From Deltaproteobacteria bacterium (GTDB lineage: Bacteria > Desulfobacterota > Deferrisomatia > Deferrisomatales > BM512): DNA of 64,000 bases. The stretch lies in the NCBI GenBank assembly GCA_002869015.1, contig PKTT01000062.1, forward strand, positions 26,257 to 90,256, written 5' to 3'. This document shows, in pieces, positions 2,827-21,206 of this stretch (within the stretch, counting starts at the first letter, position 1; every line of letters begins with the position of its first letter). The position numbers and the translations under genes were made by a program. The notes beneath the pieces are model-generated. The model was not told the origin of the DNA. It did not search any database and saw nothing but the letters and a program-made list of their open reading frames with translations.

Positions 2827-3468
2827 TCATCTGCCTACACAAGACAGCTCAAAATTCATTGCGGCAGCTTGATTTCTAGCCTCTGAAAGATCTCCCGGGT
2901 CATTTATATTGGTGAATGAGGTTAGCTCGGGGTCTATCTTGCGAAGCTCATCTAAATCGAGTATTTCAGCCCTTACCTTTTGGAATAGATGCTGTATCTT
3001 GAGGTCACCCAAAGATATCTGCCCAAGCATTGCCTGAAGGCATCCTACTCCGTAGAGGGCACAGAGGGGCTCATACCCCTTTTGCGTCTTTGGAACAACT
3101 ACATCACAACCAACGCGAAGCTCCCACAACCTCATCAAAAGCGCCTCTTTTATAAAGGGCATGTCACAGGCGATGCAGAGGACATGCCCCTCATCCCCCA
3201 ACTTTCTCCGGCAATAATCAAGCGCAGTTGCGATTCCACCCAGCGAGCCAGCGTTAACGTAAGCATCCCCTATGGTTTTAACACCTTTATAATCGAGCTT
3301 GGGGGTGCCTCCGACAACGACAACCTCCTTCGCAATCTTTGAAACTCTACCCCAAACGCGTTCAATAATTGGGATACCGGAGATCAGGAGTTCCGCTTTA
3401 TCCTCCCCCATCCTGCTTGATTTGCCCCCGGCCAGTATGGCTACAAGGGGAATTAATCCGTCACGCAT
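2827..3468 (-). CDS. mobA: Molybdenum cofactor guanylyltransferase
   Basis: 213 aa with the N-terminal nucleotide-binding motif LVAILAGGKSSRMGEDKAEL typical of MobA. Confidence 0.8.
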   Translation of the reverse strand: MRDGLIPLVAILAGGKSSRMGEDKAELLISGIPIIERVWGRVSKIAKEVVVVGGTPKLDYKGVKTIGDAYVNAGSLGGIATALDYCRRKLGDEGHVLCIACDMPFIKEALLMRLWELRVGCDVVVPKTQKGYEPLCALYGVGCLQAMLGQISLGDLKIQHLFQKVRAEILDLDELRKIDPELTSFTNINDPGDLSEARNQAAAMNFELSCVGR

Positions 3469-3609
3469 AAGTTACCCATGGCATAAAAAAGGGGGTGACA
3501 ATAGATAGCGGCATAGATATGGACTGTTGCGCCATGAAGAAGGTTAGCTTTCATGTATTTAGGTTATCTATTTAAATTTCAAGCTAGCCAGGTGTTTTAA
3601 GCCCCAACA

Positions 3610-3639
3610 AAAGAGCCCCCCATTAATGGAGGGCTCTTT
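3610..3639 (-). terminator. Rho-independent terminator after the ligase/molybdoenzyme operon (hairpin usable on both strands)
   Basis: AAAGAGCCC-CCCATTAATGGA-GGGCTCTTT hairpin with flanking A/T runs, 36 nt downstream of the stop at 3675. Confidence 0.55.
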
Positions 3640-3674
3640 TTGATCTTTAGTACTGTATGAACTTTTAAATATTT

Positions 3675-5729
3675 CTAGGCCCTGGCAACGTTGCACATAA
3701 GGGACTTCATGTCAGGGTATCCTAGAATTTTCTCTCGACAATCGGTGTCGGTCAGGAGGTTTGCGTTTTTCTCTCCCTCCCAGCCGTGCGGCACGAAGAC
3801 GATACCCTCACTAACACGCTCATCGATCCGCACCTTCATCTTAACCTGACCGCGATTCGTTGAGATAAGGGCGGTATCTCCGGTGGAGAGTCCATATTTT
3901 GCCCCAGTCTCCACGCCAAGCTCCGCAAAGGGCTCGGGGCTCTCGGTCACCAGCGCGTCTACGGCGCGGAACTGGCTATGTGTATAGTAATAATCCCTGT
4001 GCCCTGTAGAGAGGATAAGGGGGTATTTCTCCAAAAACTCAGGCTTCGAGCTTCTTGGGCTCCGCTCGGGCTCTATGTACTCCGGCAAGGGGTTTGCGCC
4101 GACATCGGCGAGCGCCTGGCTGTAAATTTCGATCTTGCCGGAAGGGGTCTTGAAGTAACGCCCGTTATCGGGGACTTCATACGCCTTATGGTTGTAGTAA
4201 GTGCCCTCGGGGGTCTCTGCCAAGAGCCCCTCGAAGGTCAAACCGGAGGGGTCGAGCTCGAAGCGAATGAGGTCTTCCTCTGTCTCCCAGGGGAAGTCCG
4301 CGCCAATGCCGAGGCGTTTTGCAAGCTCTGTGAAAACCCACCACTCCGAGCGCGACTCACCGATGGGCTCAATGCACTTCTTCCTTAACATGAGGTACGG
4401 CAAGCAGTGGCAGACGTTGTAAGTATAGGCAAGGCCCCACTTTTCAAGGTGTGAACAAGCAGGAAGGACGTAATGCGCTTCCTTCGCCGTTTCAGTAAGG
4501 AACATATCGTGGACGACGAGGAGCTCAAGTCGACGGAACGCCTCGCGGAAGGCGTTTGAGTCCGCCATTGATACAAGGGGGTTGCCGCCGACGACCCAGA
4601 ATGCCTTGATCTTGTCCGGGATTGACTCCGGCACTTTGGTGATGACGCCATACGGGCTCTTCCTGCCCCAAACTTCAATGAATAGGGGGTAATCGTCCAT
4701 GCCGAGGGGCTCGCCCTCCACATTCATGCCGACATTGCCAAAGAATGGGCGCGGGCTTATGACCCAGCCCCCGGGAACGTTGATATTACCCGTAATTATC
4801 TGAAGCACCGAGAAAGCGCGGCTGTTTTGCGTGCCGCCAGCTGTCTGGTCCTGCGTGCATGTACCCTGATAAATGCTTGCGCCCTTGGTTGTGGCGAACA
4901 TGCGGGCAAGCTCACGAATTTTTTCAGCTGGCACCCAGGTAATCTCTTCCGCCCACTCAGGGGTGAAGGGGCCGACGCTTTTGGCAAGCTCATCGTAGCC
5001 AATGGTATGCTTTTCAACGAACTCATGGTCTACGAGATCCTCATTTATAATGACGTTGATCATCGCCATCGCCATCGCGCCGTCGGTGCCGGGCCTTATC
5101 TTGAGATACATCTCGGCGTTGTCCGCCAGCGGTATACGGCGGGGGTCAATTACGACCAGCTTGGAGCCCTTGGCAAGGTTCTCCTCCAGGCGGAGCTTTA
5201 AGGGGAAGTCGCTTGCATCGGGGTTATGGCCCCAGAGGATATAGAGCTTTGAGTCAAGCTCCTCTGTGGGGTACTTGCCGAAGGTGATCTGGCGCGTACG
5301 GATACGCATGCGATAACAGACGCTCTCGACGGAGAAGAAGTTGGGGGAACCGAAGGCCGCCTTAAAGCGCTGGGTAAGCCCGGCCATCTCAAGATTTTCA
5401 ACTCCTATGGAGCCGCTGAAAACGCCCAGGGTCTGGGGGCCGAAGTCAGCTTTTAGCTGGAGAAGCTTTTCGGCGATCTCATCGAGAGCCTGTTCCCACG
5501 AGATCGGCACCAGCTCCCCATCCACCCGCTTCAGCGGTGTTTTCAACCGCTTGGGGCTGTAAATATGTGGCAACATCGCCTCGCCCTTTGGGCAAAGCTC
5601 GCCATTATTGATTGGATGGGCCTCAAGCCCCTCAACTTTTACCGCTACGCCGTCCTCAACGGTTACTCTTGTCCCGCAGCTGTGGTAGCAGAGGGTGCAG
5701 TCGGTGAGGATCTCTTTGACGTTGGACAT
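3675..5729 (-). CDS. Molybdopterin (bis-MGD, DMSO-reductase superfamily) oxidoreductase, cytoplasmic, single subunit
   Basis: 684 aa. N-terminal 4Fe-4S motif DCTLCYHSCGT...CPKG. MopB-type core and a C-terminal MGD-binding barrel (GDTALISTNRGQVKMKVRIDERVSEGIVFVPHGW). No twin-arginine signal peptide. Confidence 0.85.
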   Translation of the reverse strand: MSNVKEILTDCTLCYHSCGTRVTVEDGVAVKVEGLEAHPINNGELCPKGEAMLPHIYSPKRLKTPLKRVDGELVPISWEQALDEIAEKLLQLKADFGPQTLGVFSGSIGVENLEMAGLTQRFKAAFGSPNFFSVESVCYRMRIRTRQITFGKYPTEELDSKLYILWGHNPDASDFPLKLRLEENLAKGSKLVVIDPRRIPLADNAEMYLKIRPGTDGAMAMAMINVIINEDLVDHEFVEKHTIGYDELAKSVGPFTPEWAEEITWVPAEKIRELARMFATTKGASIYQGTCTQDQTAGGTQNSRAFSVLQIITGNINVPGGWVISPRPFFGNVGMNVEGEPLGMDDYPLFIEVWGRKSPYGVITKVPESIPDKIKAFWVVGGNPLVSMADSNAFREAFRRLELLVVHDMFLTETAKEAHYVLPACSHLEKWGLAYTYNVCHCLPYLMLRKKCIEPIGESRSEWWVFTELAKRLGIGADFPWETEEDLIRFELDPSGLTFEGLLAETPEGTYYNHKAYEVPDNGRYFKTPSGKIEIYSQALADVGANPLPEYIEPERSPRSSKPEFLEKYPLILSTGHRDYYYTHSQFRAVDALVTESPEPFAELGVETGAKYGLSTGDTALISTNRGQVKMKVRIDERVSEGIVFVPHGWEGEKNANLLTDTDCREKILGYPDMKSLMCNVARA

Positions 5730-5752
5730 TTCGGTTCTCCGTATACTCTTTT

Positions 5753-7381
5753 TTAATGAAGGCTTTCTTTAGCCGGGTTGTCTGTTGCTATCTCCACGAG
5801 GCCACCCTTACTGAAGCGGTTTATCTTTATTCCGCCGGGCATCCTCGGAAAATCATCAAGTATAAGCAATTCATCAGGCAGCTTGAATTTTGCGACCTTC
5901 CCCTTCATGAACTCACGTACCTCCGCCAGGGTCAACCCCTTATCCTTGTCGCGCAGCTTTGCGCAAACGCAGATTGACTCTCCTAGGACGGGGTTTGGGG
6001 TGCTCACTACGCTTACCTCTGCGATATTGCCCTGATCTACAAGGATAGCTTCAAGCTCGGAGGGAATAATCTTGAAACCGCCGCGGTTAATCCAATCCTT
6101 GAGGCGTCCCAGGATTTTGAAATTGCCGCTGGGTGACTTCACCCCCAGGTCTCCTGTATGGAGCCATCCATTAACCAACTGCTTTGTGGTCTCCTCAGGT
6201 TTATTCCAGTATCCCTTCATAACATGCCAGCCGGAGAGGATAATCTCGCCCTCCTCATTATCTCCCATCTCTTTTCCGGTTACGGGGTCAACTATCTTTA
6301 CGTCCGTACCGGGGATGGGCTTGCCAATGAAGTTCTCCCTAATCTCAAGGGGGGAACCATAGGGAAGTAGAATAGAGTTTCCGGGGCCGACCTCTGATGA
6401 GCCCAGGAAGGATGAGAGATAGACACCCATCTTCTCCTCTACATCTTTTATCAAACCTGCGGGAGCTATCTGACCCGCGATCATACCGGCGCGCAGGGTT
6501 GAGAGGTCATAATCCTCCCTATCCTTAGCGGCAAGCTCCATTAGGTAGTGCGCCGGAGCGCCCGGCTGAAGGGTTATCTTCTCACGCTCGATTAGCTTAA
6601 AAGCTTCGGTTGGGTTAAAGGCGTCCATCATTACCACGGTAGCGCCCAAGACAAGAGGCTGCACGAGCAAGGCGCCGCAGCCGTAGGAGTGGCCCATCGG
6701 CAGAAAACCAAGGAAGATATCTTCCTCGGTGGCGTCAACGCAAAGAGAGTAGGAGAGGCCGGCGCATAGCACCTGCGACTGTCCAATCATCGCGCCCTTG
6801 GGTTTACCCGTCGTACCGGAGGTATAGAGCAGCATCGAGAGATCGTCCGGCTTTACATCCTGCTCCTCATGGGGAACTGAAGCTGCATCTGATGATGCCA
6901 ATTCCCCGAATGACCTTACTCCATCCACACCACCAAAAGTGTCATCGGAGACTACTATCACATGCTCAAGGTCTGGCAGAGAACCTTTTAGGCTAAGGAG
7001 AGAGTCTTTATAATTGAATTTCTGCCAACTTTCGAATGCGAAAACGACCTTGGCCTTGGAGTCGCCCAGGATAAAGGAGGACTCCTTCTCCCTGTAGGCA
7101 GGGTTAATCCACGCCACGGCAACTCCCAGCTTCTGCAAAGCATAGAAGGCCAGGTTGAGCTCCAGCGAGTTAGGCATATAGATCGCCGCCATATCACCTT
7201 TTTTGAAACCGAGAGCATAAAGAGCGTTTGCGAGCTTGCCGGCCCGCTCCTTAAGGTCACTGAAGGTCATACGTTCATCACTCAGGATGAAAACTTCTTT
7301 TTCGGGGAGTCTTTCGGCGGTTTTTGTAACTTGGTCCCAGATGTTTAAGGACGCTAATGGTGCGTATGGTGTGTTATCCAT
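5753..7381 (-). CDS. AMP-forming acyl-CoA (aryl-CoA?) ligase
   Basis: 542 aa. AMP-binding signature LLYTSGTTGKPKGA, and later GWLHTGDLG and GRLKDWINRGGFKI motifs. Confidence 0.85.
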   Translation of the reverse strand: MDNTPYAPLASLNIWDQVTKTAERLPEKEVFILSDERMTFSDLKERAGKLANALYALGFKKGDMAAIYMPNSLELNLAFYALQKLGVAVAWINPAYREKESSFILGDSKAKVVFAFESWQKFNYKDSLLSLKGSLPDLEHVIVVSDDTFGGVDGVRSFGELASSDAASVPHEEQDVKPDDLSMLLYTSGTTGKPKGAMIGQSQVLCAGLSYSLCVDATEEDIFLGFLPMGHSYGCGALLVQPLVLGATVVMMDAFNPTEAFKLIEREKITLQPGAPAHYLMELAAKDREDYDLSTLRAGMIAGQIAPAGLIKDVEEKMGVYLSSFLGSSEVGPGNSILLPYGSPLEIRENFIGKPIPGTDVKIVDPVTGKEMGDNEEGEIILSGWHVMKGYWNKPEETTKQLVNGWLHTGDLGVKSPSGNFKILGRLKDWINRGGFKIIPSELEAILVDQGNIAEVSVVSTPNPVLGESICVCAKLRDKDKGLTLAEVREFMKGKVAKFKLPDELLILDDFPRMPGGIKINRFSKGGLVEIATDNPAKESLH

Positions 7382-7608
7382 TGGGGGCCTCGTCTCATCT
7401 AGTAAAACATTATTTCATTTATGTATTTTCGAATTCTACCATCACCCCCTCCCCTGTCAAGGGAAAAGTATCCTTTCTCATCATGGGCCAAAATTCGATT
7501 GCCTCACAAATTATTTGCTTACAATACGCTTTTTTACTTGTTTTCACATGTGTCGGCCTATGCTGGGGCTGCTCTTTGGCCAATTATCTCTCCACTTACA
7601 CTTACATG

Positions 7609-7637
7609 TTGACAGCTAATAATTGAATGGGTAGTTT
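7609..7637 (+). promoter_or_regulatory. Candidate sigma-70 promoter of the IclR-family gene (TTGACA-17 nt-TAGTTT)
   Basis: TTGACA at 7609-7614, 17-nt spacer, TAGTTT at 7632-7637, 55 nt upstream of ATG 7693. Confidence 0.35.
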
Positions 7638-7646
7638 AGAAATAAA

Positions 7647-7663
7647 GTTTCATTTAATGAAAC
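7647..7663. promoter_or_regulatory. Palindrome GTTTCAT-TTA-ATGAAAC, candidate IclR-type operator (site 1)
   Basis: Perfect 7-bp arms just downstream of the candidate iclR promoter, in the ligase/iclR divergent region. A near-identical site lies at 19149-19163. Confidence 0.45.
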
Positions 7664-7692
7664 GCTCTTCTTCTTAAGGAGCTTATTCATAC

Positions 7693-8505
7693 ATGGATTC
7701 GCAGTCAAAACAACGAAGCGTGACAAACGGTAGGTACAACATAAGGGCGATAGAGCGCGCAATTGCGATACTCAATCTTTTTTCGCGAGAGCGCAGCCTC
7801 ATGACCCTTGACGAGATAACACGCGACACGGGGCTCTCAAAATCCACAGCCTTCAGGGTTCTAGCGACCCTTGAGCAGCACGGCTACGTAGTAATTGATG
7901 AAAGCACGGGCAAGTACCGCCTGGGGGCGATCTTCCTCTCCCTTGGCGCGGCCGTGCTGACCTCAACGAATCTGCGTAAAATAGCAAGTCCTTTTCTAAA
8001 CAGGCTAAAAAACAAATTAAACGTTACGGTCCTACTTGGCGCACCAGTCGATGGCTCCCTTGTCTACATTGACAGGAAGGAAGCGCCGGGCCCCTTGCAC
8101 ATCTCATCGGACATCAGCTGGCGGCGTGACCCGATACATTACGGCATGCTTGGCATGGTGCTCCTCTCCTCCTGGGATGACGAAGAGATATCAGAATATC
8201 TAAAGGAAAATAAGCTAATCGCGTATACCAAAAACAGCCTTACAAAAGTCGATCAGTGGCTTCAAAGGGTAAAGGAGATACGCGAGGCGGGCTACGTAGT
8301 TGAATTTGAAGAGGCGATAGAGGGCGTGTGGGGAGTTGCAGCTCCGGTAAAGAACTCCAACGGTGAAGTGGTAGCCGCAGTTGGTGTTGCACAGCCAATC
8401 TCTGCCAAGAACTCCGTATTGGTATCAGAGACAATCGGCTCCGTCACCCGCTGCGCAGAGGCTATATCATCCGAGCTCGGATACCGCTCCGCTAGCAACT
8501 TCTAA
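7693..8505 (+). CDS. IclR family transcriptional regulator
   Basis: 270 aa. N-terminal wHTH (AIERAIAILNLFSRERSLMTLDEITRDTGLSKSTAFRVLATLEQHGYV) and an IclR effector domain. Confidence 0.85.
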   Translation: MDSQSKQRSVTNGRYNIRAIERAIAILNLFSRERSLMTLDEITRDTGLSKSTAFRVLATLEQHGYVVIDESTGKYRLGAIFLSLGAAVLTSTNLRKIASPFLNRLKNKLNVTVLLGAPVDGSLVYIDRKEAPGPLHISSDISWRRDPIHYGMLGMVLLSSWDDEEISEYLKENKLIAYTKNSLTKVDQWLQRVKEIREAGYVVEFEEAIEGVWGVAAPVKNSNGEVVAAVGVAQPISAKNSVLVSETIGSVTRCAEAISSELGYRSASNF

Positions 8506-8593: not shown

Positions 8594-9181
8594 TCAGCCG
8601 ACATCCTCAAAGGAGCGGGCAAGCACATAAGCTGCCTGCAGCGCCGAGGTTGGGCAGAGCGGGAAACATTCCTTACAATCCCAGCACTCTTTGGCTGCTA
8701 TCTCAGGGATAAAGCTTATCTCCCGGCTGGCACCCTGATCAACGAAGGTGACCGCATTTTTCCCCTTTATCTCATCGCAGTAGCGCACACAGAGTCCACA
8801 ATGAATACAAAAGGATGACTCTCTGCGATATTTCTCGGGGTCTGCTTTGTACTCCTTTGCCATCTCAGCAAGGTCATGGGAGTCGGGGGCATGTGCCAGC
8901 ATCAACTCCAATATTGTCTTTCTGATCTGGTCAATCTTCTCGGAGCGTGTGCGTACAACAATATCTGCTTCCACCGGGTAAACGCAGCCCACAACGTACT
9001 TGGTGCGGCCCCACGCCTCAACCTCCACCGTGCAGACGCGGCAACCGCCGTAAGGCTCCAGCTTGTCATGGTGACAAAGGGTGGGTATCTCAACCCCCAC
9101 TGTGCGGGCGGCTTCCAGGAGCGTCATGCCTTCTGTGGCTGCGACTTCTTTGCCATCTATCGTTAAGCGGACTTCACTCAT
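8594..9181 (-). CDS. bamI: Class II benzoyl-CoA reductase subunit BamI-like (NuoG N-terminal type 2Fe-2S/4Fe-4S protein)
   Basis: 195 aa. The N-terminus (RLTIDGKEVAATEGMTLLEAARTVGVEIPTLCHHDKLEPYGGCRVCTVEV) is typical of the NuoG/HydC N-terminus. Last gene of the bamB-I syntenic block. Confidence 0.75.
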   Translation of the reverse strand: MSEVRLTIDGKEVAATEGMTLLEAARTVGVEIPTLCHHDKLEPYGGCRVCTVEVEAWGRTKYVVGCVYPVEADIVVRTRSEKIDQIRKTILELMLAHAPDSHDLAEMAKEYKADPEKYRRESSFCIHCGLCVRYCDEIKGKNAVTFVDQGASREISFIPEIAAKECWDCKECFPLCPTSALQAAYVLARSFEDVG

Positions 9182-9217
9182 CTTAAATGCTTTCTCTTGT
9201 CAGGCCCTCTACAGGGC

Positions 9218-10903
9218 TCAGTTTGCCTCAATAGCGCAGTCGCCTGCGGGGCACTTCTTCTCATTGATATGCGCTTCGTACTCGGCTTTGAAATACCTTA
9301 GCGCGCTCCGCAATGGGTCCGGCGCCGTCTTCCCCAAGGAACAGAGAGAAGCCACAGACATGGTGTCTGCAATCTCCTCCAGCCGCTCTATGTCTCCCGG
9401 CCTGCCCTCGCCGCTGCAAATATCATTTAAGATATTCAGCATCTGGCGCATACCCTCTCGGCATGGTGTGCATTTGCCGCAGGACTCCTTGGTGAGGAAT
9501 TCGACGAAGTAGCGGGTAAGGGACACCATGCAAGTCTCATCGTCGATAACGAGCAGTGCGCCTGCGCCCATTGGCGCCCCAAGCTTACCAAGCTCATCGA
9601 AATCGAGGGGGGTGTCTATCATGTCGCCGGGTATAGAGCCGCCCATCGGCCCGCCAAAGTGGACCGCTTTTAACTTCTTACCGTTAGCGACGCCGCCGCC
9701 GATGGTCTCCACCACCGTTTTGAGCGATGTGCCCATCTCAACCTCGACAACGCCTATATTTCGCGCACTGCCTGAGAGGGAGATAAGCTTGCTCCCATTT
9801 GACTTCTCGGTGCCCATGCCGGCGAACCACTCTACGCCGTTATTTATTATGTAGGGTACATTGGCCCAGGTCTCTACGTTGTTTAAATTGCTGGGCATGT
9901 CGTTTACGCCGCTGACCGAGGTGCGCACATACTTGGGGCGCGGCTCCGGCATGTTTCCTTCCAGCGACCGCATCAGCGCGCTCGATTCTCCGGATACGAA
10001 GATGCCGACATCGAAATGCACCTCTACATCAAAGTCAAATCCAGAGCCGAGGATGTCATTGCCAAGCAGCCCCGCCTCACGCGCCTGTTCAAGGGCTCTA
10101 TTGAGGTTAGCCAGAAGCATCGGGCTGTCATGACGGGTATAGATGAAGCCCTTGGTTGCGCCTATAGCGCGAGCTCCGATAATCAGCCCCTCAAGAACGA
10201 GGTGTGGGTTGCCGGTGAAAAGTGCCCTGTCCATGAAAGCACCTGGTTCGCCCTCATGCCCGTTTACTATCACGTACTTCTCTTCGCCGGGGGCATTGCG
10301 TGTTGTCTCCCACTTCCGGCCCGCCGGGAAACCGCCACCCCCCCTGCCCCTCAAATTGGACTCTTTAACTTCATCCAATATAGCTTCAGGGGTCATGGCG
10401 AAGAGCGCCTTTGAAAGAGCAGCGTACCCACCTATAGCCAGATAGTCCTCAAGGCTCGTGGGGTCGATGCGTGCGTTGTCACCTATGAGAATTCTCGATT
10501 GCTCACGGTAGAAGGGAATTTTATCAAGGGCCTCTACGCGCTCACCCGTATCGGGGTCGGCGTAGAGAAGTCGCTCAATTGGTTTTTCGCCATTGGCAAC
10601 CTGAGAGACAATCTCGGCCGCGTCATCAGCGCCTACCTGGACGTAACATATATTTGAGGGGTTTACGATTACCACAGGCCCCATTTCACAAAAGCCGAGG
10701 CAGCCTGTTGCCATAACCCTTACCTTGCCTTCAAGCCCCTGCGCCTTCACCTCTTTTTCAAAGGCGTCAACTACCGCCCCGTTACCCAGAGCGTGGCAGT
10801 TGGGAGCAGCGCATATGGCAATTGAGGACGCTTTGGGGTCGCGAGCCTCTAAAATGGCTTTACGAATCTCTTCAAGTTTCTCGGGCGAGCCGATCCTTTG
10901 CAT
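9218..10903 (-). CDS. bamH: BamH-like NAD(P)H-binding flavoprotein (NuoF/HydB family)
   Basis: 561 aa. NuoF motifs (GRGGGGFPAGRKWE, ESCGKCTPCREG) plus an N-terminal thioredoxin-like Fe-S domain. Confidence 0.85.
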   Translation of the reverse strand: MQRIGSPEKLEEIRKAILEARDPKASSIAICAAPNCHALGNGAVVDAFEKEVKAQGLEGKVRVMATGCLGFCEMGPVVIVNPSNICYVQVGADDAAEIVSQVANGEKPIERLLYADPDTGERVEALDKIPFYREQSRILIGDNARIDPTSLEDYLAIGGYAALSKALFAMTPEAILDEVKESNLRGRGGGGFPAGRKWETTRNAPGEEKYVIVNGHEGEPGAFMDRALFTGNPHLVLEGLIIGARAIGATKGFIYTRHDSPMLLANLNRALEQAREAGLLGNDILGSGFDFDVEVHFDVGIFVSGESSALMRSLEGNMPEPRPKYVRTSVSGVNDMPSNLNNVETWANVPYIINNGVEWFAGMGTEKSNGSKLISLSGSARNIGVVEVEMGTSLKTVVETIGGGVANGKKLKAVHFGGPMGGSIPGDMIDTPLDFDELGKLGAPMGAGALLVIDDETCMVSLTRYFVEFLTKESCGKCTPCREGMRQMLNILNDICSGEGRPGDIERLEEIADTMSVASLCSLGKTAPDPLRSALRYFKAEYEAHINEKKCPAGDCAIEAN

Positions 10904-10912
10904 ATTCTGTCC

Positions 10913-11365
10913 TTACTTGACGTTTTTCAGCACGTCTTCGGTTTTACTCGGAGCAAGCCGTCCATGATATTGGCCGTCCACCATCATCACGGGACCAAGC
11001 GAGCAAGCGCCCATACAGTTGACCGCAGTTAAACTGAATTTTGATTCGCTGTCTGTCTCTCCGGGGCGAATACCGGCAACCTCATACACAGTGTCGAGCA
11101 CCTTCTGCGCGCCGCGAAGGTGGCAGGAAGTTCCGGTGCAGACATGGAGCTCATGGTCACCCTTTGGCACAAGGCTGAAAGTCTTATAAAAAGCGGCTAT
11201 CTGTTGAACTTTGGCCAATGGAACCCCCAGCCGCTCGCTGACCCTCTCCAATGCCTCCTTCGGCAGCCAGCGGTTGTGATGCTGGATGTCCATGAGGATC
11301 ATAATGAGCGCCCTTGGCTTGGCCTCAAATTTATCAATGATCTGGTCGATCTTATCCTGAGTCAT
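10913..11365 (-). CDS. bamG: BamG-like 2Fe-2S protein (NuoE/HoxE family)
   Basis: 150 aa. NuoE pattern HELHVCTGTSCHLRGA...CMGACSLGPVMMVDG. Confidence 0.85.
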   Translation of the reverse strand: MTQDKIDQIIDKFEAKPRALIMILMDIQHHNRWLPKEALERVSERLGVPLAKVQQIAAFYKTFSLVPKGDHELHVCTGTSCHLRGAQKVLDTVYEVAGIRPGETDSESKFSLTAVNCMGACSLGPVMMVDGQYHGRLAPSKTEDVLKNVK

Positions 11366-11382
11366 ATCCTGAACCTCGTCGC

Positions 11383-12159
11383 CTAAACCGCTTTGGCCAA
11401 GCGGAACCGCTTATCGTCTTCGTTGTAACGGACAAGCCCGTGTTTAGCCGAGTTACCTATGTGCCGGGCAACCTCTGAAGTGCTCATACCCAAAGCTTCG
11501 GCCAACTCGGCTGCGTTGCTGGCTGATTTAGCCAACTGAGTGAGGATGAGGCTTACAGCAAGCTTGTCGCCAACCAAATCCTTGAGCAGCCGCTCAACGT
11601 CAGGAGAGTTGAAATACTCGGCATACTTCTCCGCCGTATCGAAGCGCACTCTAAGCCGTTCGCGCTCAACGAGGCGCACATTGGGCAGAAGCCTGTTTAA
11701 AGCCTCGAAACGCTCGGTGAGCTGTTCGGGTGTTATTCCTTCACCCTCCCCGAGGGGGCCAAGCTCTTTAATCTGCGAGCTGAAATCATTTACGGTCTGA
11801 ACAAAGCGGAGTCCCTCACCCGCTGACATCTGCGCTATACGCAAACGCCTTGGGTCAATTCCAACGAAACCTAGCAGCTTTTTGCAAAGCTCGACCATGT
11901 GAGCCGCATGGTAATTGCCGCCGGTGTCGTAATGGCAATCCCCGAGATGGCAACCGCCAATCAGGACGCCGTCCTTGCCGTTTGTAAATGCCCGTATCAC
12001 ATGAGAGAGGTCGACTCTCCCGGTACACATGATGCGGATAAGCTTTATATCTGTTGCATATTGGAGTCTGGACACGCCAGCCAGGTCAGCAGACCCGTAC
12101 GCTCACCAATTGCAGACAAAGCCCAGAATGTCGGGCCGGTGTGAGAAGCTGGTTCCCAT
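11383..12159 (-). CDS. bamF: BamF-like MvhD-type protein, predicted selenoprotein (in-frame TGA at 12103-12105) with a C-terminal wHTH-like extension
   Basis: The ORF track starts at GTG 12075. The same frame continues upstream through one TGA to ATG 12159 (AAGGAG RBS at 12166-12171): MGTSFSHRPDILGFVCNW-TGA-AYGSADLAGVSRLQY.... This aligns with the MvhD N-terminal motif FCCNWC(T/S)YGGADxAG, with the TGA at the second Cys. Confidence 0.75.
12064..12096 (-). promoter_or_regulatory. Candidate SECIS hairpin downstream of the bamF UGA
   Basis: The mRNA from 7 nt after the UGA reads GGGUCUG-CUGACCUGGCUGGCGUGUC-CAGACUC. It forms a 7-bp lower stem (one G-U pair) with further GAC/GUC pairing possible. 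Hand-folded only. Confidence 0.35.
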
Positions 12160-12216
12160 TTTTATCTCCTTAAAAATTAAACTGCACTTACCTGAAACTG
12201 TTACCGGGATGCGCTA

Positions 12217-15200
12217 CTACGCAGCATCTATCTGCGAGGCTATCTCGCACTCGGTATAATGCTTTAGATCTACTGCTCCCGTGGGGCACTTAGTGTTGCA
12301 AAGGCCATCGCCCTTACAGAGGACCGGATTTACCCTCGCCTTCTTGCCTGCCGGGGTATCGTGGAACTCAATGGCGTTGTAGCTGCAAGCTGTTATACAC
12401 GCGCCGCATGAGATGCAGTCTGACTCTGCGACCTGGGCTACCGCGCCGGAGGCGCTCACCGCGTCTTTCGCCAAAACGTTTACCGCACGTCCTGCAGCGC
12501 CGAAGGCCTGGCTTATAGCTTCTGGAATTCGCTTCGGGTAATGGGCGCTGCCACAAAGGAAGACTCCATCGGCGGCAAAATCCACCGGGCGAAGCTTTAC
12601 GTGAGCCTCCTGGAAAAAACCGTCTGGATTGAGCGACACCTTGAACTGGCGCGCAGCCTCCTGGCTTCCCTCTGAGGGGACCACCGCCGCAGCCAGCGTA
12701 ACCAGGTCAACATCAATTTCGAGCATCTTCCCAAGGATCGGGTCCGGCACCCTCAGCTTAAGCGCCGAGCCGCCCTCCTCAACTTGAGGCTTTGCATCGG
12801 GCTCATAGCGGATGAATTTGACGTCCATACCGGCGGCTTCGCGGTACGCCTGCTCCGCCATGCCATAGGTGCGCATATCCCTGTAAATGACATAGACCTC
12901 TCTCTTGGGGTCGGATTTTTTGAGGGCTATTGCGTTTTTAACGGACTGGGTGCAGCAGAGGCGGCTACAGTAATTGCGCTCCTCATTACGACATCCTACG
13001 CACTGGATCATAGCCACGCTCTTAGCGCTATCAACCAGCTCGGAGCCCCCGTCCATCGCAGCTTCCAGCTCAAGGGAAGTTAGCACCCTCTCGCTCTCTC
13101 CGTACAGGTACTCGGTAGGCTTGTGCTCATCTGCGCCTGTAGCGAGAACCGCTACGCCGTGGGCTATGTTTCTAGTCCTGCTGCCTGTACGTACAGTCGT
13201 ATTGAAGTCACCGATGTAGCCTGTGACCTGGGTTATTCTGGAGTCAGTCCATACATGTATTAATGGGTTTTTATAGACCGCATTGATTAGACCATCTATG
13301 TGGGACTGAACATCCATCCCCTCAAGCGTTGTGGGCACCCTTCGCGCCATACCGCCAAGGTCCTTATCCTTTTCAACCAGATAAACCTCAAACCCCTGGC
13401 TCGCCATGCTTAGCGCAGTGGTCATGCCTGAAAGGCCACCGCCCACTACCAGCCCGGCTTTGTTCACAGGCAGCTCATACTCAGGCAATGGCTCCAAAAG
13501 CGCGGCGCGAGAGACAGACATGCGCACTATCTCTTTGGCTTTGGCAGTTGCGGCCTCTTTCTCTCTCGAATGGACCCAGGAGCAATGCTCGCGTATGTTC
13601 GCCATCTCATAGAAGTAGGGGTTTATTCCGCCCTCCCGGCAGGTATCGCGGAAGAGGGGCTCGTGGGTACGAGGAGTGCATGCCGCGACGACGACTCTGT
13701 TAAGGTCCTTATCTCGAATCTGGTCGGAGATATCCTTTGCATTCTCCGTCGAACAGGCAAAGAGGCTCTCCTGCGCATGGACGACATTGCCAAGCGTGGA
13801 TGCATACTCTACGACCGAGGGCACATCGACCACGCGGCCTATGTTCGCGCCGCAATGGCATACGAACACGCCAATCTTTAGCTCCTCGCCTGAGGTATCC
13901 TTCTCTTCAGGATATACTCGCTCACGGGAGAGTTTGCCTCTGCGGTAGGAGAGCAACTGGCTGCAAAGAGCGTCCGCTCCGCTGGCGGCTACAACGGACT
14001 CCGGTATATCGAGAGGGCCGGTGAAAGCGCCGCTGACGAAGATGCCCGGGCGGCTTGTTTCAATGGGGTTCTCCGGCTTGGTCTTGCAAAAACCATATTC
14101 GTTGAGCTCTACTCCAAAGGTATCCGCCAGCTCTTTGACGTTCTCGGTGGGGTTTATACCAACCGAGAGCACTACCAGATCAAACTCCGCCTCTTTGACC
14201 CCATCATCTGGAGTTGAGTAGCGGATGGTAAGATTTTTTGTTTCAGGATCTTCGCCCGCCATTGAAACGTAGCTGCGAATGAACTCGACGTCGGAGAGGT
14301 TCTCTGCGCGCTGGTAGTAGCGCTCGAAGTCCTTGCCGAAGGCGCGGATATCATTGTGAAAGACAGTGGCTTTGATTTCGGCGTCGTGGTCTTTTGCCAA
14401 GATCACCTGCTTTTGAGTGTAAGCACAGCAAACCGCCGAGCAGTAGCTGTTGCCTCCGGGGCGAACTTGGCGGGAGCCAACGCACTGAATCCAACCTATT
14501 TTCTCGGGGTGCTTTCCATCTGAAGGGCGGCGGATGTGTCCGTCATAGGGGCCAGTGGAGCAGAGTATACGCTCAAAGTCGAGGCTCGTTACCACGTTCT
14601 CCATGGTTCCATAGCCATAATCGCCTCGAAGCGAGGGGTCGAACACCTCATACCCCGGCGATAGCAGCACTGCTCCCACGCTAAGCTGCTCCAGCTTGAC
14701 GCTCTGGTGGAGGTCAATGGCGTTGTGTTTGCAAACTCCGCTGCAAATTGTGCACTTCTCCCCCTGGAGATACAGGCATTTATCAGGATCGACGTAAGTG
14801 ACCAGCGGAACAGCCTGGGAGAAGTATATGTGAACAGCCTTGTTTTCAGAGAGGTTCTGGTTGTAGGGGTCCGGCACCTTCGCGGGGCAGTACTCCACGC
14901 AGACACCGCAGCCGGTGCACTTGTTTTCGATTATGTAGCGTGGCTTTCTCGCCAAGGTGATTTTGAAATCACCGGCGTGGCCGCTCACATCGCGCACCTC
15001 TGTGTAGGTCAGAATCTCTATATTTGGGTGACGGCTGCACTCAATGAACTTCGGCGACTCAATGCACATCGAACAGTCATTGGTGGGGAAGGTCTTGTCC
15101 AACTGCGCCATCTTGCCGCCGATGGAGGGGGCCTTGTCCACCAGCACCACCCTGAACCCCGCGTCACCGAGGTCAAGGGCAGCCTGTATGCCGCTGATAC

Positions 15201-15282
15201 CCCCACCGACTATCAACACGTCGGCGTGGTCGCTCTCAAGAGAGTGTTCGAGCCGTAGGTCGTCTAACGGTAAATTTTCCAC
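12217..15282 (-). CDS. bamE: BamE-like HdrA-type FAD/Fe-S oxidoreductase (large fused form)
   Basis: 1021 aa. GTG start with AAGGAAG RBS. HdrA signatures (VLIVGGGISGIQAALDL, KTFPTNDCSMCI), several CxxCxxCxxxCP ferredoxin motifs and a second FAD-binding domain (VVGGGLSGMTTAL). No in-frame stop. Confidence 0.85.
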   Translation of the reverse strand: MENLPLDDLRLEHSLESDHADVLIVGGGISGIQAALDLGDAGFRVVLVDKAPSIGGKMAQLDKTFPTNDCSMCIESPKFIECSRHPNIEILTYTEVRDVSGHAGDFKITLARKPRYIIENKCTGCGVCVEYCPAKVPDPYNQNLSENKAVHIYFSQAVPLVTYVDPDKCLYLQGEKCTICSGVCKHNAIDLHQSVKLEQLSVGAVLLSPGYEVFDPSLRGDYGYGTMENVVTSLDFERILCSTGPYDGHIRRPSDGKHPEKIGWIQCVGSRQVRPGGNSYCSAVCCAYTQKQVILAKDHDAEIKATVFHNDIRAFGKDFERYYQRAENLSDVEFIRSYVSMAGEDPETKNLTIRYSTPDDGVKEAEFDLVVLSVGINPTENVKELADTFGVELNEYGFCKTKPENPIETSRPGIFVSGAFTGPLDIPESVVAASGADALCSQLLSYRRGKLSRERVYPEEKDTSGEELKIGVFVCHCGANIGRVVDVPSVVEYASTLGNVVHAQESLFACSTENAKDISDQIRDKDLNRVVVAACTPRTHEPLFRDTCREGGINPYFYEMANIREHCSWVHSREKEAATAKAKEIVRMSVSRAALLEPLPEYELPVNKAGLVVGGGLSGMTTALSMASQGFEVYLVEKDKDLGGMARRVPTTLEGMDVQSHIDGLINAVYKNPLIHVWTDSRITQVTGYIGDFNTTVRTGSRTRNIAHGVAVLATGADEHKPTEYLYGESERVLTSLELEAAMDGGSELVDSAKSVAMIQCVGCRNEERNYCSRLCCTQSVKNAIALKKSDPKREVYVIYRDMRTYGMAEQAYREAAGMDVKFIRYEPDAKPQVEEGGSALKLRVPDPILGKMLEIDVDLVTLAAAVVPSEGSQEAARQFKVSLNPDGFFQEAHVKLRPVDFAADGVFLCGSAHYPKRIPEAISQAFGAAGRAVNVLAKDAVSASGAVAQVAESDCISCGACITACSYNAIEFHDTPAGKKARVNPVLCKGDGLCNTKCPTGAVDLKHYTECEIASQIDAA

Positions 15283-15343
15283 GTCTATTCTTCCTTTAGC
15301 GGGACGAATCCCTAAGGGTTACTGCTAAAACGCATAGCCTCAT

Positions 15344-16507
15344 CTATAGAGACTCGTACAACAGCTCCATTACATCTTTTATCTGGAGACTTTCGCTATC
15401 CTCAAGCCCCAGCCGGCTATCTTCAAAGTTTGCTATGCAATAAGGGCAGGCGGTGGCGAGCACCGCAGCCCCAGCCTCTGCGGCCTGATTGACTCTGATC
15501 GTAGAGAAGCGCTCCTCCTTGGGGGTATCAACCCAAATGCGCCCTCCGCCCCCTCCGCAGCAGAGGCTCTTCTCCCTTGAATCCGGGAGCTCGACCAAAT
15601 CAACTCCGGGGATGCTTTTCAAAAGGTCGCGCGGCTCCTCGTAGACCCCATTGTGGCGGCCAAGGTAGCAGGGGTCGTGGTAGGCAACAACAGCGGGCAT
15701 CTCCTTTGTCGGGGTGATACGCCCCTCTGCTATAAGCTCTGAGATATACTGGGTTACGTGCACTACCTCGAAGTTGACCATAAATTCAGGGTATTCATTT
15801 TTAAAGGTGTGGTAGCAGTGCGGTGAATTGACCAACACCTTTTTGACCCCATGTTCGATGAAGTTTTTGATGTTCTCTTTGGCAAGCCTGACGAAGGTCT
15901 CCTCATCGCCGGCTTTTCTGATTGACTCACCACAGCAATTTTCCTTGGTCCCGAGAATGCCAAAGGATACGCCGGCCTTGTCCAGCAACTTGGTAGTTGC
16001 GGCAGCCACCTTCCTGAGTCGCCTGTCATAACTTAGGTAGCAGCCGGAGAAGTAGAGCACCTCCATATCATCGGTAAATGGCTTTACCGGCAAATCCTTC
16101 GCCCAATCGGCGCGCTTATCACGTGGCTCTCCCAGCGGGTTGCCCTCTATTGACAGATTGCCGCTGGCAGCTCTCAGCGGTTTGACCTTTTCAGGGAAGA
16201 CATCGTATTCAGTGGCAATTCGCCTGAGCGCTACACCGGAGTCTATCTGGCGAACATCTCTAGGGCACTGAGTAGGGCAAGTGCCGCAGGTGGTGCAACG
16301 CCAAATCTCCTCATTTTCGATTTCAGTCAAACCGAAGACAGCCTGGCGTACTATCTTTCTCATGCTGAAGGGGCGCACCCTGTTCCAGGGGCATACTGTG
16401 TCGCATAGCCCGCACTGGTAGCAGTATTTAAAGGCGTCGCCGCCTTTTTCCTTAATTATTTCAACAATGTCTTCAAAGGGCGCAACTGTTTCCACGGCAA
16501 TCCCCAA
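15344..16507 (-). CDS. bamD: BamD-like HdrD-type Fe-S/CCG-domain protein
   Basis: 387 aa. CYQCGLCDTVCPW and CTTCGTCPTQCPR motifs plus two CCG motifs (ENCCGES, SLCCGGGGG). TTG start, uncertain by a few codons. Confidence 0.8.
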   Translation of the reverse strand: MGIAVETVAPFEDIVEIIKEKGGDAFKYCYQCGLCDTVCPWNRVRPFSMRKIVRQAVFGLTEIENEEIWRCTTCGTCPTQCPRDVRQIDSGVALRRIATEYDVFPEKVKPLRAASGNLSIEGNPLGEPRDKRADWAKDLPVKPFTDDMEVLYFSGCYLSYDRRLRKVAAATTKLLDKAGVSFGILGTKENCCGESIRKAGDEETFVRLAKENIKNFIEHGVKKVLVNSPHCYHTFKNEYPEFMVNFEVVHVTQYISELIAEGRITPTKEMPAVVAYHDPCYLGRHNGVYEEPRDLLKSIPGVDLVELPDSREKSLCCGGGGGRIWVDTPKEERFSTIRVNQAAEAGAAVLATACPYCIANFEDSRLGLEDSESLQIKDVMELLYESL

Positions 16508-16522
16508 TCGTTTCTTAAGTGG

Positions 16523-17074
16523 TTAAGCGGATTTCTTGGCCATGGTGGCGACCGATTTCACCACTTCTTCAAGCCCGTATCGTTTAACCAGATATTCGAG
16601 CCCAATCTCTTTTTCTCCGCGTTCTGGTGTTATGGAGTCCTCGGCCTCAACCTGGTATTCGTGGTAGGTAAGCGCGCCCGGGTGGCAGACCTGTACGCAC
16701 ATCGGCTCACCGATGTCCAGGCTCTCGCACATATCACACTTTAGAGGAAGGCCTGAATCCGGCTCCGTAAAACGGGAGCGTGACGGGCACGAGGCGGGGC
16801 AGAGAAGACAAGACTCATACTCTTTGCCATCTATTGTGTATTTGTTTCGCCCAGCACATTCAGCCTCGGCGTAATCTCCCGCCCTGATGGGTATATAAGC
16901 GTCGGTGGACTCATCAATGACCACGGTGATACGGGAGCGGGCCGGGTTAACGCTTGTATAGGGAGGCATTGCGTGGGCTGCGGAGCAGCTCATCTCGCAG
17001 CTGAGACACCCATTACATTTATTTACGTCGACACGGATCTCTTTGATCGTCTTCATCTTCTTATTTTCTTTCAT
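16523..17074 (-). CDS. bamC: BamC-like 4Fe-4S cluster protein
   Basis: 183 aa. CNGCLSCEMSCSAAH and further Cys clusters. GGAGA RBS. Lies immediately downstream of the AOR-type subunit. Confidence 0.8.
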   Translation of the reverse strand: MKENKKMKTIKEIRVDVNKCNGCLSCEMSCSAAHAMPPYTSVNPARSRITVVIDESTDAYIPIRAGDYAEAECAGRNKYTIDGKEYESCLLCPASCPSRSRFTEPDSGLPLKCDMCESLDIGEPMCVQVCHPGALTYHEYQVEAEDSITPERGEKEIGLEYLVKRYGLEEVVKSVATMAKKSA

Positions 17075-17132
17075 TTAACTTTCTCCATAACCACCGGCGC
17101 TTCTTTGGCGCGCAGCGTCAGGGTGCGAACGA

Positions 17133-19049
17133 TTATTCAGCGGCTGAGTAAATACCACGTTTTTCAAAGTCCTCGCGCACATCGCCAAGAGCCAGCTCTT
17201 CCAGCGTCTCGGGCGTCGGGATACCATCCTGCGTCCAGCCTTTGAATTCGTAATAGGCGCTAAGGAGGCTCTGCTCAAACTCCTCATCTCGAACCGCCCA
17301 ATGGTCTTCCGGCGGACGCTCATCCGCCCTCCTCATGCCGCGCCTGACGTTTATTGCGCGAACGAGATTTCTGTTGCGGCGAAAAACCTTCCACAGGTCT
17401 TCCTTACTGAGGTCGAGGCCGGCCGCCATACGGATAAGGTCTGGTATATTGTGGATGTTGTATTGGGTCTTGCCGCCGAACTGGCCCCTGAATGACGATA
17501 CAAAGGCGCACAGGCCAATGGCGTCGTCGATGTAGTGCATCGCCTCATTCCAATCTACGATGTCACACACTGCGCCTGAAGGCATCTCGTTACGCCTCTC
17601 CCACTCCATGAAATACTTCTTGAATTTCTCATCGGGAACCGCCTCCCAGGCATCGACGAACGCCTGGCGCTCCTCTATGGTAGGTAGCGGATCCTGCGGG
17701 AAGGAGCCCTCGATCTGGGTGATGTTCATCTTCTCGCCGGTGGCGATCATTAAAAAGAACATCGGGTTGACCTTGCCGAGCTTGATCGGCACCTGCTCGA
17801 ATTTCTTCGTGGTGTTGTGGTCAAACTTCTCAGCGCCGTTGCCAATCTGGCGCGCGGCCCAGTAAACGCCGTTCGCCAACTTGTCGCCTATACCTCTGCG
17901 ATTGACTATCATATCGAGGATATAGAAGAAGCGGCCGCGTATATCTTCGGGCATGCCGGGGAAATCATCCAGGGTTAGAATGCCCTCCTCAAGGAGCTCA
18001 AGGGCGAAGGCAATTACCTGCGGAGTTGAGTAGGAGTCGAGTCCATACTCCTGCGCGACGCCGAGAATTTCGTAGGAAAAATCAAGCTCCTGGAAGGAAG
18101 CCATGTGGTAGGTGTCTTTACCAAAGCACTTGTAACTAAAGCGCTTTCGGCCGGGCCATGATATTACGTTGTGGCATTTTTTGGGACAATTATAGCAGCC
18201 TGTCTGGCGGTCCATGTGGTCATACTTGATATCCGTCCAGCGCTGCTGAAGCTCCTCGCTCCAATAATTCTTCTGGCGGACGCGAGCGTTACCCCAGGAG
18301 AAGTTGTCATGGTGGAAGCCGTCATCCTCATCAACCGCCATCCAGTCGCCAGCGCCGGGGTTATCAGCGAGGTCTTTCCTTAAATCCTTACATATATGAA
18401 AGAGCTTCTCCGGCTCCGCCATCTGAAGGTCTTTGGTGCCGCGTACAACTATTGCCTTTACCCGCTTGTCGCCCATCACCGGGCCAACTCCACGAGAAGC
18501 GCTGCAATGGCTGTGCTCGATAGAGGCTGTGTAGACGCGATTCTCACCGGCAAGGCCGATAGCAGCAATTTGAAGTTTGTCGTCGCCCAAGTCTTTTTTC
18601 AGGAAATCCTGGACCTCAGTGGTGCCCATACCCGCCAAATGAGCAGCGTCTCTTATTTCGACGTTGTCATTGTTTATGTAGATGTATACGAGCTTAGGGG
18701 CTTTGCCGCTTAATATTATCTTATCGTACCCGGCGTGCTTCATCTCCACGCCGAAGTAGCCGCCCATCATGGAGTGTGCGTGCAGATTGGTCTGCGGCGA
18801 GAAGGTATTCACAATTGTCCGGTTAGCGCCGGGGACGAAGGTGCCGTTAAGGAGGCCGCTGCTGAAGATAAGCAGGTTCTCCTCGGAGAAGGGCTCTACT
18901 TCAGGCCCAACACGGTCCCAGAGTATTTTGTCCGCCGTACCCTGCCCGCCAAGGTAAAGCTTTGTCAGCTCAGGGTCGGTTGCAACTCTTTCGATATTGC
19001 CGCGCGTGAGGTCGATTTCAAGGTTAAACCCTGTTTCTGCGTACCGCAT
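17133..19049 (-). CDS. bamB: BamB-like tungsten-pterin active-site subunit of class II benzoyl-CoA reductase (AOR family)
   Basis: 638 aa. The N-terminus MRYAETGFNLEIDLTRGNIERVATDPELTKLYLGGQGTADKILWDRVGPEVEPFSEENLLIF closely follows the Geobacter metallireducens BamB N-terminus as I recall it. AOR-family domains throughout. Confidence 0.9.
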   Translation of the reverse strand: MRYAETGFNLEIDLTRGNIERVATDPELTKLYLGGQGTADKILWDRVGPEVEPFSEENLLIFSSGLLNGTFVPGANRTIVNTFSPQTNLHAHSMMGGYFGVEMKHAGYDKIILSGKAPKLVYIYINNDNVEIRDAAHLAGMGTTEVQDFLKKDLGDDKLQIAAIGLAGENRVYTASIEHSHCSASRGVGPVMGDKRVKAIVVRGTKDLQMAEPEKLFHICKDLRKDLADNPGAGDWMAVDEDDGFHHDNFSWGNARVRQKNYWSEELQQRWTDIKYDHMDRQTGCYNCPKKCHNVISWPGRKRFSYKCFGKDTYHMASFQELDFSYEILGVAQEYGLDSYSTPQVIAFALELLEEGILTLDDFPGMPEDIRGRFFYILDMIVNRRGIGDKLANGVYWAARQIGNGAEKFDHNTTKKFEQVPIKLGKVNPMFFLMIATGEKMNITQIEGSFPQDPLPTIEERQAFVDAWEAVPDEKFKKYFMEWERRNEMPSGAVCDIVDWNEAMHYIDDAIGLCAFVSSFRGQFGGKTQYNIHNIPDLIRMAAGLDLSKEDLWKVFRRNRNLVRAINVRRGMRRADERPPEDHWAVRDEEFEQSLLSAYYEFKGWTQDGIPTPETLEELALGDVREDFEKRGIYSAAE

Positions 19050-19148
19050 ATTATTCGCCTTTTTAAAATCTTAACGTCTTTGTGTTTTATTAGCGTTCCA
19101 TAGGTGACCTCTTGAGACAAAAATATGGGCCACCTGAGGCAATCAATA

Positions 19149-19163
19149 TTTCATTCTATGAAA
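19149..19163. promoter_or_regulatory. Palindrome TTTCAT-TCT-ATGAAA, candidate IclR-type operator (site 2) upstream of bamB
   Basis: Lies 100-114 nt upstream of the bamB ATG (19049) and abuts a TTGATT -35-like hexamer on the bam strand. Matches site 1 in 15 of 17 positions. Confidence 0.4.
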
Positions 19164-19441
19164 CTGCATTTCAGCTGTTGGCATAAGATTATCTCGACAA
19201 CACTTTCGCCGCAAGGGTAAAAATCTATTTTTTACTCAATTTTTTTAAGATATCCCCTCAAAAACCTCATCACTGAGCTTTTTCAATGGGGATGCGCGAC
19301 AATTTGTTTATTGGGAAAATTATGCAGCAAAGCACAGGGGGAAGCTTAACTGGCTTTTAAGATGCCTCAGGCGAGGAAAATTGTGGGTACATATTCGTCA
19401 AATGAACTAAGCAGGTTTCCAAGGCAAGCACTAAAAAGACA

Positions 19442-21079: not shown

Positions 21080-21206
21080 GCCCCCCTCTTCGGAAGGCGC
21101 ACGAGTAGCGCAATCGGGAATGGGATAGATCCGCCCGATTCGCCAGCCTACCGATCCGGTTGTACCCTTAGCCAATAAACATACAGCCCCTTGCTGGAGA
21201 AATAAC

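Follow-up and report, generated by a model that had tools for sequence, protein, structure and literature searches.

Does an inverted repeat that lies in front of a gene for an IclR-family regulator, and again in front of a benzoyl-CoA reductase operon, serve as the operator through which that regulator controls the aromatic-degradation genes on both sides of it? The question is raised by a 64,000-nt stretch of DNA (the window, below) from a MAG of an uncultured 'Deltaproteobacteria bacterium'. An initial annotation of this stretch had noted the repeat, TTTCAT-N3-ATGAAA, and had proposed that the encoded IclR protein co-regulates its own gene, a ligase/molybdoenzyme operon and a bam operon.

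The regulator gene (7693-8505, + strand) encodes a 270-aa protein with both Pfam domains of the family, HTH_IclR (PF09339; residues 19-67, E = 1.9e-16) and IclR_C (PF01614; residues 87-259, E = 1.7e-30), each above its gathering score, and the closest solved structures to this protein are IclR-family proteins. It scored 140.4 bits against TIGR02431 (PcaR/PcaU/PobR), for which the cut-off is 284.75, and 128.6 bits against the KdgR equivalog NF011671, for which the cut-off is 275, and it also fell below the NCBIfam cut-off for BhcR. Because it lies well below all three thresholds, we regard it as an uncharacterised member of the IclR family. Divergent from iclR, on the - strand, is a putative target operon (2827-7381) that comprises genes for an AMP-forming CoA ligase (5753-7381), a cytoplasmic bis-molybdopterin oxidoreductase (3675-5729) and a MobA-like protein (2827-3468). 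Convergent with iclR is a second putative target, a complete bamBCDEFGHI-like operon for a class II benzoyl-CoA reductase (8594-19049, - strand). Domain and family searches supported these gene calls. Sequence searches of the PDB returned family-level names only, for the ligase (aryl-acid or 4-coumarate ligases) as well as for the Mo enzyme (FdhF or acetylene-hydratase-like).

The bis-molybdopterin enzyme is 79-80% identical to counterparts in Geobacter MAGs (L012, L013) and a Desulfuromonadaceae MAG (L020), a degree of conservation that none of the neighbouring proteins reaches. The enzyme is found again beside an IclR gene, a CoA ligase and BamB(C) paralogues in a series of loci (L012, L013, L020, L023, L026, L034, L060, L063 and L065), and could be part of an undescribed aryl-CoA pathway.

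Further along, the window carries a gene set of the anaerobic phenol type (38141-55449). In this region are phenylphosphate-synthase-like genes (PPDK_N, 48620-49750; PEP-utilizers, 49754-51610), four UbiD paralogues (40876-42240, 42512-43960, 44545-45957 and 54148-55449), a HAD/CTP-dependent riboflavin-kinase fusion (46989-48104), a PaaK-like ligase (38902-40236), a MetA-pathway outer-membrane protein (52723-54078), as well as a LysR regulator (46093-46992). Just outside the set lies another LysR gene (57322-58206), and a sigma-54 response regulator and histidine kinase that belong to the set are encoded at 34324-38132. Since it has these genes in addition to the bam operon, the window can be described as an anaerobic phenol/benzoyl-CoA island. 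A scan with a position weight matrix (PWM) found no gene with an IclR site in the phenol-type set or among these regulator genes. Two other regions of the window may be mentioned here. An RND-type efflux operon (20636-29042), with an OEP outer-membrane factor, two unannotated proteins and an AcrB-like pump of 1,169 aa, diverges from a metallo-beta-lactamase-fold (MBL) gene (19442-20347) beside bamB, an order that is kept in L161 and L162. Also, a 1,741-aa protein with about 10 cadherin-like/Big_9 repeats is encoded in 58750-63975, where the G+C content is 0.60-0.62, compared with about 0.50-0.55 elsewhere.

Exact matches to TTTCAT-N3-ATGAAA were found at two places only when both strands of the 64-kb window were searched, 7648-7662 and 19149-19163, and the exact pattern TTTCATNNNATGAAA had no match in 100 dinucleotide-preserving shuffles. 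The two palindromes are thus where the initial annotation had placed them. Site 1 (core GTTTCATTTAATGAAAC), which was identified from the sequence and by the pattern scan, reads GTTTCAT-TTA-ATGAAAC over 7647-7663 and lies in the divergent intergenic region between iclR and the ligase gene (7382-7692), which is 311 nt long, as had been reported. Site 2 has the core TTTCATTCTATGAAA at 19149-19163, within the 17-mer ATTTCATTCTATGAAAC at 19148-19164, and this core precedes the start codon of the bamB-like gene (19049) by 100-114 nt, again in agreement with the earlier figure. The two 17-mers had been said to agree in 15 of 17 positions; we count 14. When up to 2 mismatches were allowed, one further match appeared, and the resulting number (3 observed versus 2.6 expected) is at chance level for the window; together, the PWM scan and the 2-mismatch scan gave no additional site above chance except one at 7393. 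In the locus with the closest regulator (L001, in which the IclR protein is 93% identical to that of the window), site 1 is kept as TTTCACTTAATGAAA.

The sites had first been described as simple palindromes of about 15 bp. The palindrome is present in each, but the sites extend beyond it to form three-box operators: a 26-nt pattern, ATGAAA-N5-TTTCAT-N3-ATGAAA, in which each palindrome would be the strong pair, had 3 matches in the window at 3 or fewer mismatches, where 0.06 would be expected, and each of them precedes iclR, the ligase gene or bamB. The operator at the iclR promoter, which contains site 1, is tAGAAA-N5-TTTCAT-N3-ATGAAA (7637-7662, + strand; 2 mismatches). The one that contains site 2 is cTGAAA-N5-TTTCAT-N3-ATGAAA (19149-19174, - strand; 1 mismatch), located 100-125 nt upstream of the bamB start. 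The third, ATGAAAtaatgTTTTACtagATGAGA, is a degenerate copy in the ligase leader, ATGAAA-N5-TTTtAc-N3-ATGAgA (7393-7418, - strand; 3 mismatches), located 12-37 nt upstream of the ligase ATG, and it is the same site that the PWM detected at 7393. That 3 of its 18 box positions are mismatched counts against reading it as an operator; it is 100% conserved in L001. The three-box form of both window sites and the third, degenerate copy are newly recognised here.

A similar architecture was seen when we surveyed the flanks of 105 sites, namely those from the loci of IclR orthologues (described below) that had enough flanking sequence, together with the two window sites. A third half-site (TTTCAT, with no more than 1 mismatch) occurred at a gap of exactly 5 nt in 29% of flanks, compared with about 1% at other gaps, and a fourth, at a gap of 14, in 14%. 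Among pairs of neighbouring sites, 12 were exactly 20 bp apart and 2 were at 19 bp. We also considered a rule that the third box points towards the regulated gene, which was true for all 3 window sites, but was inconsistent across the orthologues and was dropped.

The positions of the three operators relative to promoters were determined by inspection and by computer-assisted scans. A candidate iclR promoter can be read from the sequence on the + strand (7609-7637), with TTGACA at 7609-7614 and TAGTTT at 7632-7637, separated by a 17-nt spacer, and the three-box operator at 7637-7662 starts at the last base of this -10 hexamer. The promoter scan did not call this candidate because its -10 hexamer matches at only 3 of 6 positions. 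The overlap between site 1 and the candidate promoter suggests that iclR is autoregulated. For the ligase operon, the - strand has a strong sigma-70-type promoter (7433-7460) with TTGACA, a 16-nt spacer and a TG-extended TAGAAT, matching at 11 of 12 positions; counted from the transcription start predicted for it, the leader site 7393-7418 would span about +8 to +33. In an alignment with L001, the intergenic region retained only two conserved islands, each with a promoter and an operator: one includes the ligase start, the site at 7393-7418 and the ligase promoter, and the other includes the iclR promoter and site 1. The approximately 125 nt between the islands has diverged. Site 1 had been proposed as a control point shared by the two transcription units. 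Its assignment to iclR stands, but the ligase operon has its own promoter and degenerate operator about 230 bp away, and site 1 therefore appears to be placed mainly for autoregulation of iclR.

The arrangement at bamB is less straightforward. Site 2 had been said to abut a -35-like hexamer, TTGATT. The hexamer is present on the bamB strand, but 2 nt separate it from the palindrome, so that the site nearly abuts it. A sigma-70 scan of the region upstream of bamB placed no promoter there, a by-eye check revealed no convincing sigma-54 element, and a GATAAT upstream of site 2 lacks a good -35. Because the palindrome is 2 nt from TTGATT and no promoter could be placed, activation at bamB is as compatible with this region as repression is. 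The same regulator, acting through the same operator and repressing its own promoter, might thus be an effector-dependent activator at bamB, binding just ahead of the -35 element. The IclR family includes many activators, and PcaU, PobR, PcaR and MhpR bind just upstream of the -35; also, no promoter was found upstream of site 2, as an activator site would allow. Yet the hexamer that follows TTGATT is a poor -10, with a spacer of 15 nt at best, and the other two window operators sit where a repressor would bind, at the predicted start of transcription or beyond it. We consider activation at bamB an unlikely, though credible, alternative to repression at all three operators.

If the repeat is the operator of this regulator, it would be expected to accompany the regulator in other genomes. 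We collected the 80 best species-level genome loci with homologues of the window IclR (37-93% identity; 1.216 Mb), which represent Geobacterales, Desulfobacterales, Deferrisomatales and Syntrophorhabdus, among other groups; no locus of G. bemidjiensis is included. With no more than 1 mismatch, the motif occurred 104 times, in 64 of the 80 loci, against about 2.3 occurrences expected (0-6 in block-shuffled controls), an enrichment of 40-fold or more over shuffles. None of the sites was inside iclR, and 62 were within 500 nt upstream of the aligned iclR start. At several of the loci that lack the motif, a symmetric variant, TTTCAC-N3-GTGAAA, was present at the expected place, and overall the motif accompanies the IclR homologues in about 64-72 of the 80 loci, whatever the gene order. 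Four loci (L002, L003, L009 and L080) had no site even at 2 mismatches, including one from Deferrisomatales (L002) with an IclR protein 60% identical to that of the window. Consistent with a conserved motif, the recognition helix, LSK.T.FR.L.T, is invariant across 36 homologues.

The same repeat was recovered without reference to the pattern. When every perfect inverted repeat with 5-nt arms and a spacer of 0-9 was counted in the 400 nt upstream of the iclR homologues, TTTCA-N5-TGAAA ranked first (26 of 79 loci, compared with 1 in control segments), and the opposite arrangement, TGAAA-N5-TTTCA, was next (16 loci, compared with 0).

We labelled the genes of these loci by tblastn with the window proteins, and observed that, for 93 of the 104 sites, at least one labelled gene follows within 450 nt: iclR (65 sites), the orthologous CoA ligase (20), bamB-like genes (13), UbiD (9), the Mo enzyme (7), PaaK-like ligase (3) and TRAP transporter (3). 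Orthologues of the ligase and of the Mo enzyme adjoin the IclR homologues in 46 and 15 of the 80 loci, respectively. The order of these genes is not fixed. Geobacterales have bamB..I, iclR, the site, an AOR-like paralogue, bamB, bamC and so on; Desulfobacterales have two successive sites followed by iclR and the ligase gene; another arrangement has two sites between the Mo-enzyme gene (-) and the ligase (+) and iclR (+) genes; and in L026 and L060, two sites separate bamC(-) and bamB(-) from ligase(+), Mo-enzyme(+) and iclR(+). That the gene order varies while the site stays between the same genes is the pattern expected of a regulon with its regulator.

Several features of these loci were noted in passing. 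In Geobacterales (L005-L008, L010, L013-L016, L018 and L020), the IclR gene lies between two tandem bam clusters, the second of which opens with the extra AOR-like paralogue, whose identity to BamB is 48-56%, and a BamB of 60-62% identity comes next; in most of these loci the IclR site is upstream of the second cluster only. In many Desulfobacterales-type loci (L027, L029, L042, L043, L048, L050, L058 and L073), iclR diverges from a UbiD-family gene with the site between the two, often with TRAP transporter genes adjacent, which suggests that the same regulator group may control aryl-acid decarboxylase modules, for example of the phthalate type, via the same operator. For site 2 itself, the closest relatives are of little help. 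L001 ends about 0.7 kb short of the bamB upstream region, L161 ends inside the MBL gene, and in Deferrisomatales, the loci that have an MBL homologue do not show the order MBL-bamB. L162, which was found via the MBL gene, is 100% identical to the window across the bamB upstream region, and for this reason it provides no independent evidence that site 2 is conserved.

As a negative control we used 80 metagenomic loci anchored on bamB instead of iclR (61-77% identity to the window BamB; 0.577 Mb). Most of these have no IclR gene nearby, and three (L099, L101 and L107) have only a paralogue of 25-28% identity. The motif occurred 3 times in the 0.577 Mb, and a site was present in 1 of 73 bamB upstream regions, versus 10 of 29 when the loci were anchored on IclR (Fisher p = 8e-6). 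Since it is nearly absent where no IclR orthologue is nearby and occurs where this type of IclR is encoded, we conclude that the motif does not belong to bamB promoters in general. One of the 3 control matches (L101, 2279-2293) is directly upstream of a 25%-identical IclR paralogue that precedes bamB; remoter IclR relatives beside bam genes may use a similar box.

These observations also bear on the suggestion that some other transcription factor binds the palindrome and that iclR is close to it merely as a member of the same aromatic-degradation island. The window does encode other candidates, the two LysR regulators and the sigma-54 two-component pair, and the L101 match shows that a site can stand beside bamB next to an IclR relative as distant as 25% identity. 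However, iclR is the only gene common to all of the site-bearing loci, in which the surrounding order varies widely, and 65 sites are directly upstream of it, whereas the bamB loci without a nearby IclR orthologue almost lack the motif. Also, the motif conforms to the canonical consensus of the IclR family and not to a LysR T-N11-A box or an enhancer-binding-protein site. We therefore judge binding by another factor to be quite improbable. In the aggregate, the co-occurrence of motif and iclR, the positions of the genes, the bamB control and the family consensus support the original proposal that the IclR protein co-regulates iclR, the ligase/molybdoenzyme operon and the bam operon, and the TTTCAT-N3-ATGAAA repeat is very probably where the neighbouring IclR-type regulator binds the DNA, by which the three transcription units would be linked in a single small regulon.

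Inverted repeats of this kind could alternatively act in the RNA, as a leader hairpin or a terminator, or be functionless palindromes that arise by chance in AT-rich sequence. Site 1 can form a 7-bp hairpin in the iclR leader (-5.1 kcal/mol, z = -2.2), which would fit the former possibility, but the hairpins at the three sites are weak (-5.1, -5.0 and -2.3 kcal/mol) and none has a U-tract. Those at site 2 and 7393-7418 were indistinguishable from shuffles, and no terminator was called at either. An enrichment of at least 40-fold over shuffles argues against chance. From genome to genome, the arms keep their actual sequence, beyond mere complementarity, while the spacer is free to vary, and this indicates a protein site rather than an RNA structure. 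With weak folds, no U-tract and conservation of the arm sequence itself, we rejected the hairpin or terminator reading, and an origin in RNA structure or chance seems to us very improbable indeed.

How does the proposed operator compare with those of known IclR-family regulators? In a survey of 1,340 regulators of the family and 4,809 predicted sites (Suvorova & Gelfand 2021; PMC8222616), the group 1 consensus was GKTYCRYW3-4RYGRAMC, with a subgroup GTTYCRYW3RYGRAAC (GTT-11-AAC), and that of group 2 was TGRAACAN1-2TGTTYCA; 32 orthologous groups had predicted three-box sites with alternating directions, 94 had tandem sites at a distance of 18-22 nt, and most site centres were at -20 to -80 from the gene start. 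Delta- and Epsilonproteobacteria made up only about 2% of that data set, and the HTH of the present orthologous group (LSKSTAFR / LSKPTVFR) was not found in those of its supplementary tables that were available to us. Site 1 fits GTTYCRYW3RYGRAAC at every position, and site 2 fits except for one spacer base and its A/T end, in which it resembles the WTT-11-AAW subgroup. The sites described here are at about -38 from the iclR start, inside the -20 to -80 zone. Further traits of the family are the sites upstream of the regulator's own gene (65 of 104), the 12 tandem pairs at 20 bp and the three three-box sites of the window. As with these group 1 operators, the target genes belong to the metabolism or transport of aromatic compounds, but here the targets are anaerobic, namely class II benzoyl-CoA reductase, aryl-CoA ligase and UbiD enzymes.

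The layout resembles that of the three-box operators of PcaU, PobR and HmgR, which have a strong palindrome with a third box in alternating direction, as do all three sites of the window. In operators of the PcaU/PobR/HmgR type one pair is of group 1 and the other of group 2 (TGRAAC-N3-4-GTTYCA); in the window, a group 1 pair is combined with a group 2-like pair. PcaU and PobR differ in that they are activators of aerobic beta-ketoadipate pathway genes and recognize different box sequences. With KdgR, whose box is RWWGAAACGNCGTTTCAKKA, the half-site is nearly identical (TGAAAC / GTTTCA), and in JGI annotation several of the IclR homologues are named 'KDG regulon repressor'. However, KdgR uses the group 2 arrangement, in which the half-sites face the opposite way from those of the window motif, and it controls a pectin/KDG regulon as a repressor, whereas the neighbours of the IclR gene studied here are CoA ligase, bam, UbiD and TRAP genes rather than genes for sugar acids.

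Substrate-responsive control of benzoyl-CoA pathways is already attributed to BamVW and BgeR (the repressor of bamA in G. bemidjiensis) in Geobacter, BadM and BadR in Rhodopseudomonas, and BzdR/BoxR and MbdR in Azoarcus, all of which have the same job as that proposed for the present regulator. BamVW is a sigma-54 two-component system, BadM is of the Rrf2 type and BadR of the MarR type, BzdR and BoxR are XRE/shikimate-kinase-like proteins, and MbdR is of the TetR type, so that these families differ from IclR. No annotation source names any homologue of the window IclR as BgeR. In the literature that we searched, we found no paper that connects bam genes with either an IclR regulator or this motif. 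An IclR-type gene, Gmet_2064, was listed (13-fold) among the genes with changed expression during benzoate metabolism in G. metallireducens (Butler et al. 2007).

The explanation that we favor, and hold with good confidence, is that the three-box sites are operators of the IclR regulator encoded at 7693-8505, which probably acts by repression that is relieved by an aromatic effector. The assignment of the operator rests on the sequence and its statistics, on conservation, on the association of the motif with iclR and on its agreement with the family consensus; from it we infer protein binding, occupancy by a tetramer, repression and the nature of the effector. An IclR dimer of dimers would occupy such a site on one face of the DNA. 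The operator at the -10/+1 region of the iclR promoter would provide for autoregulation, the second would act in the CoA-ligase/Mo-enzyme leader, just downstream of the strong sigma-70-type promoter, and the third from 100-125 nt upstream of bamB. Most likely, the protein would repress these transcription units when substrate is lacking. An aromatic acid or its CoA thioester, that is, the substrate or product of the ligase, would bind to the C-terminal IclR domain and cause the protein to be released, whereupon the cell would turn on substrate activation and ring reduction along with the regulator itself. Such a mechanism would be that of a standard IclR-family operator and regulon, and it adds nothing new mechanistically.

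A broader reading, which we offer tentatively and with somewhat less than even confidence, is that this IclR orthologous group represents an undescribed regulator of Thermodesulfobacteriota, with a single shared operator, that switches aryl-acid modules and the Mo enzyme. The group spans Geobacterales, Desulfobacterales, Syntrophorhabdus and Deferrisomatales, and the modules would comprise CoA ligase, TRAP transporter, UbiD decarboxylase and BamB(C)-type ring reductases, along with the conserved cytoplasmic bis-molybdopterin enzyme. Few regulators of anaerobic aromatic-ring reduction are known in obligate anaerobes, BamVW and BgeR being those named in the literature surveyed, and the operator, if the broader reading is true, would be the first operator-level handle on the control of class II benzoyl-CoA reductases outside these two systems. 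The conserved operator gives a testable regulon and a candidate biosensor for an aromatic acid or an aryl-CoA. It also offers a cheap tag for co-regulated genes in uncultured Thermodesulfobacteriota, such as the module of ligase, bis-molybdopterin enzyme and BamBC paralogues, and, again if the broader reading holds, the motif would become a genome-mining handle for new anaerobic aromatic pathways.
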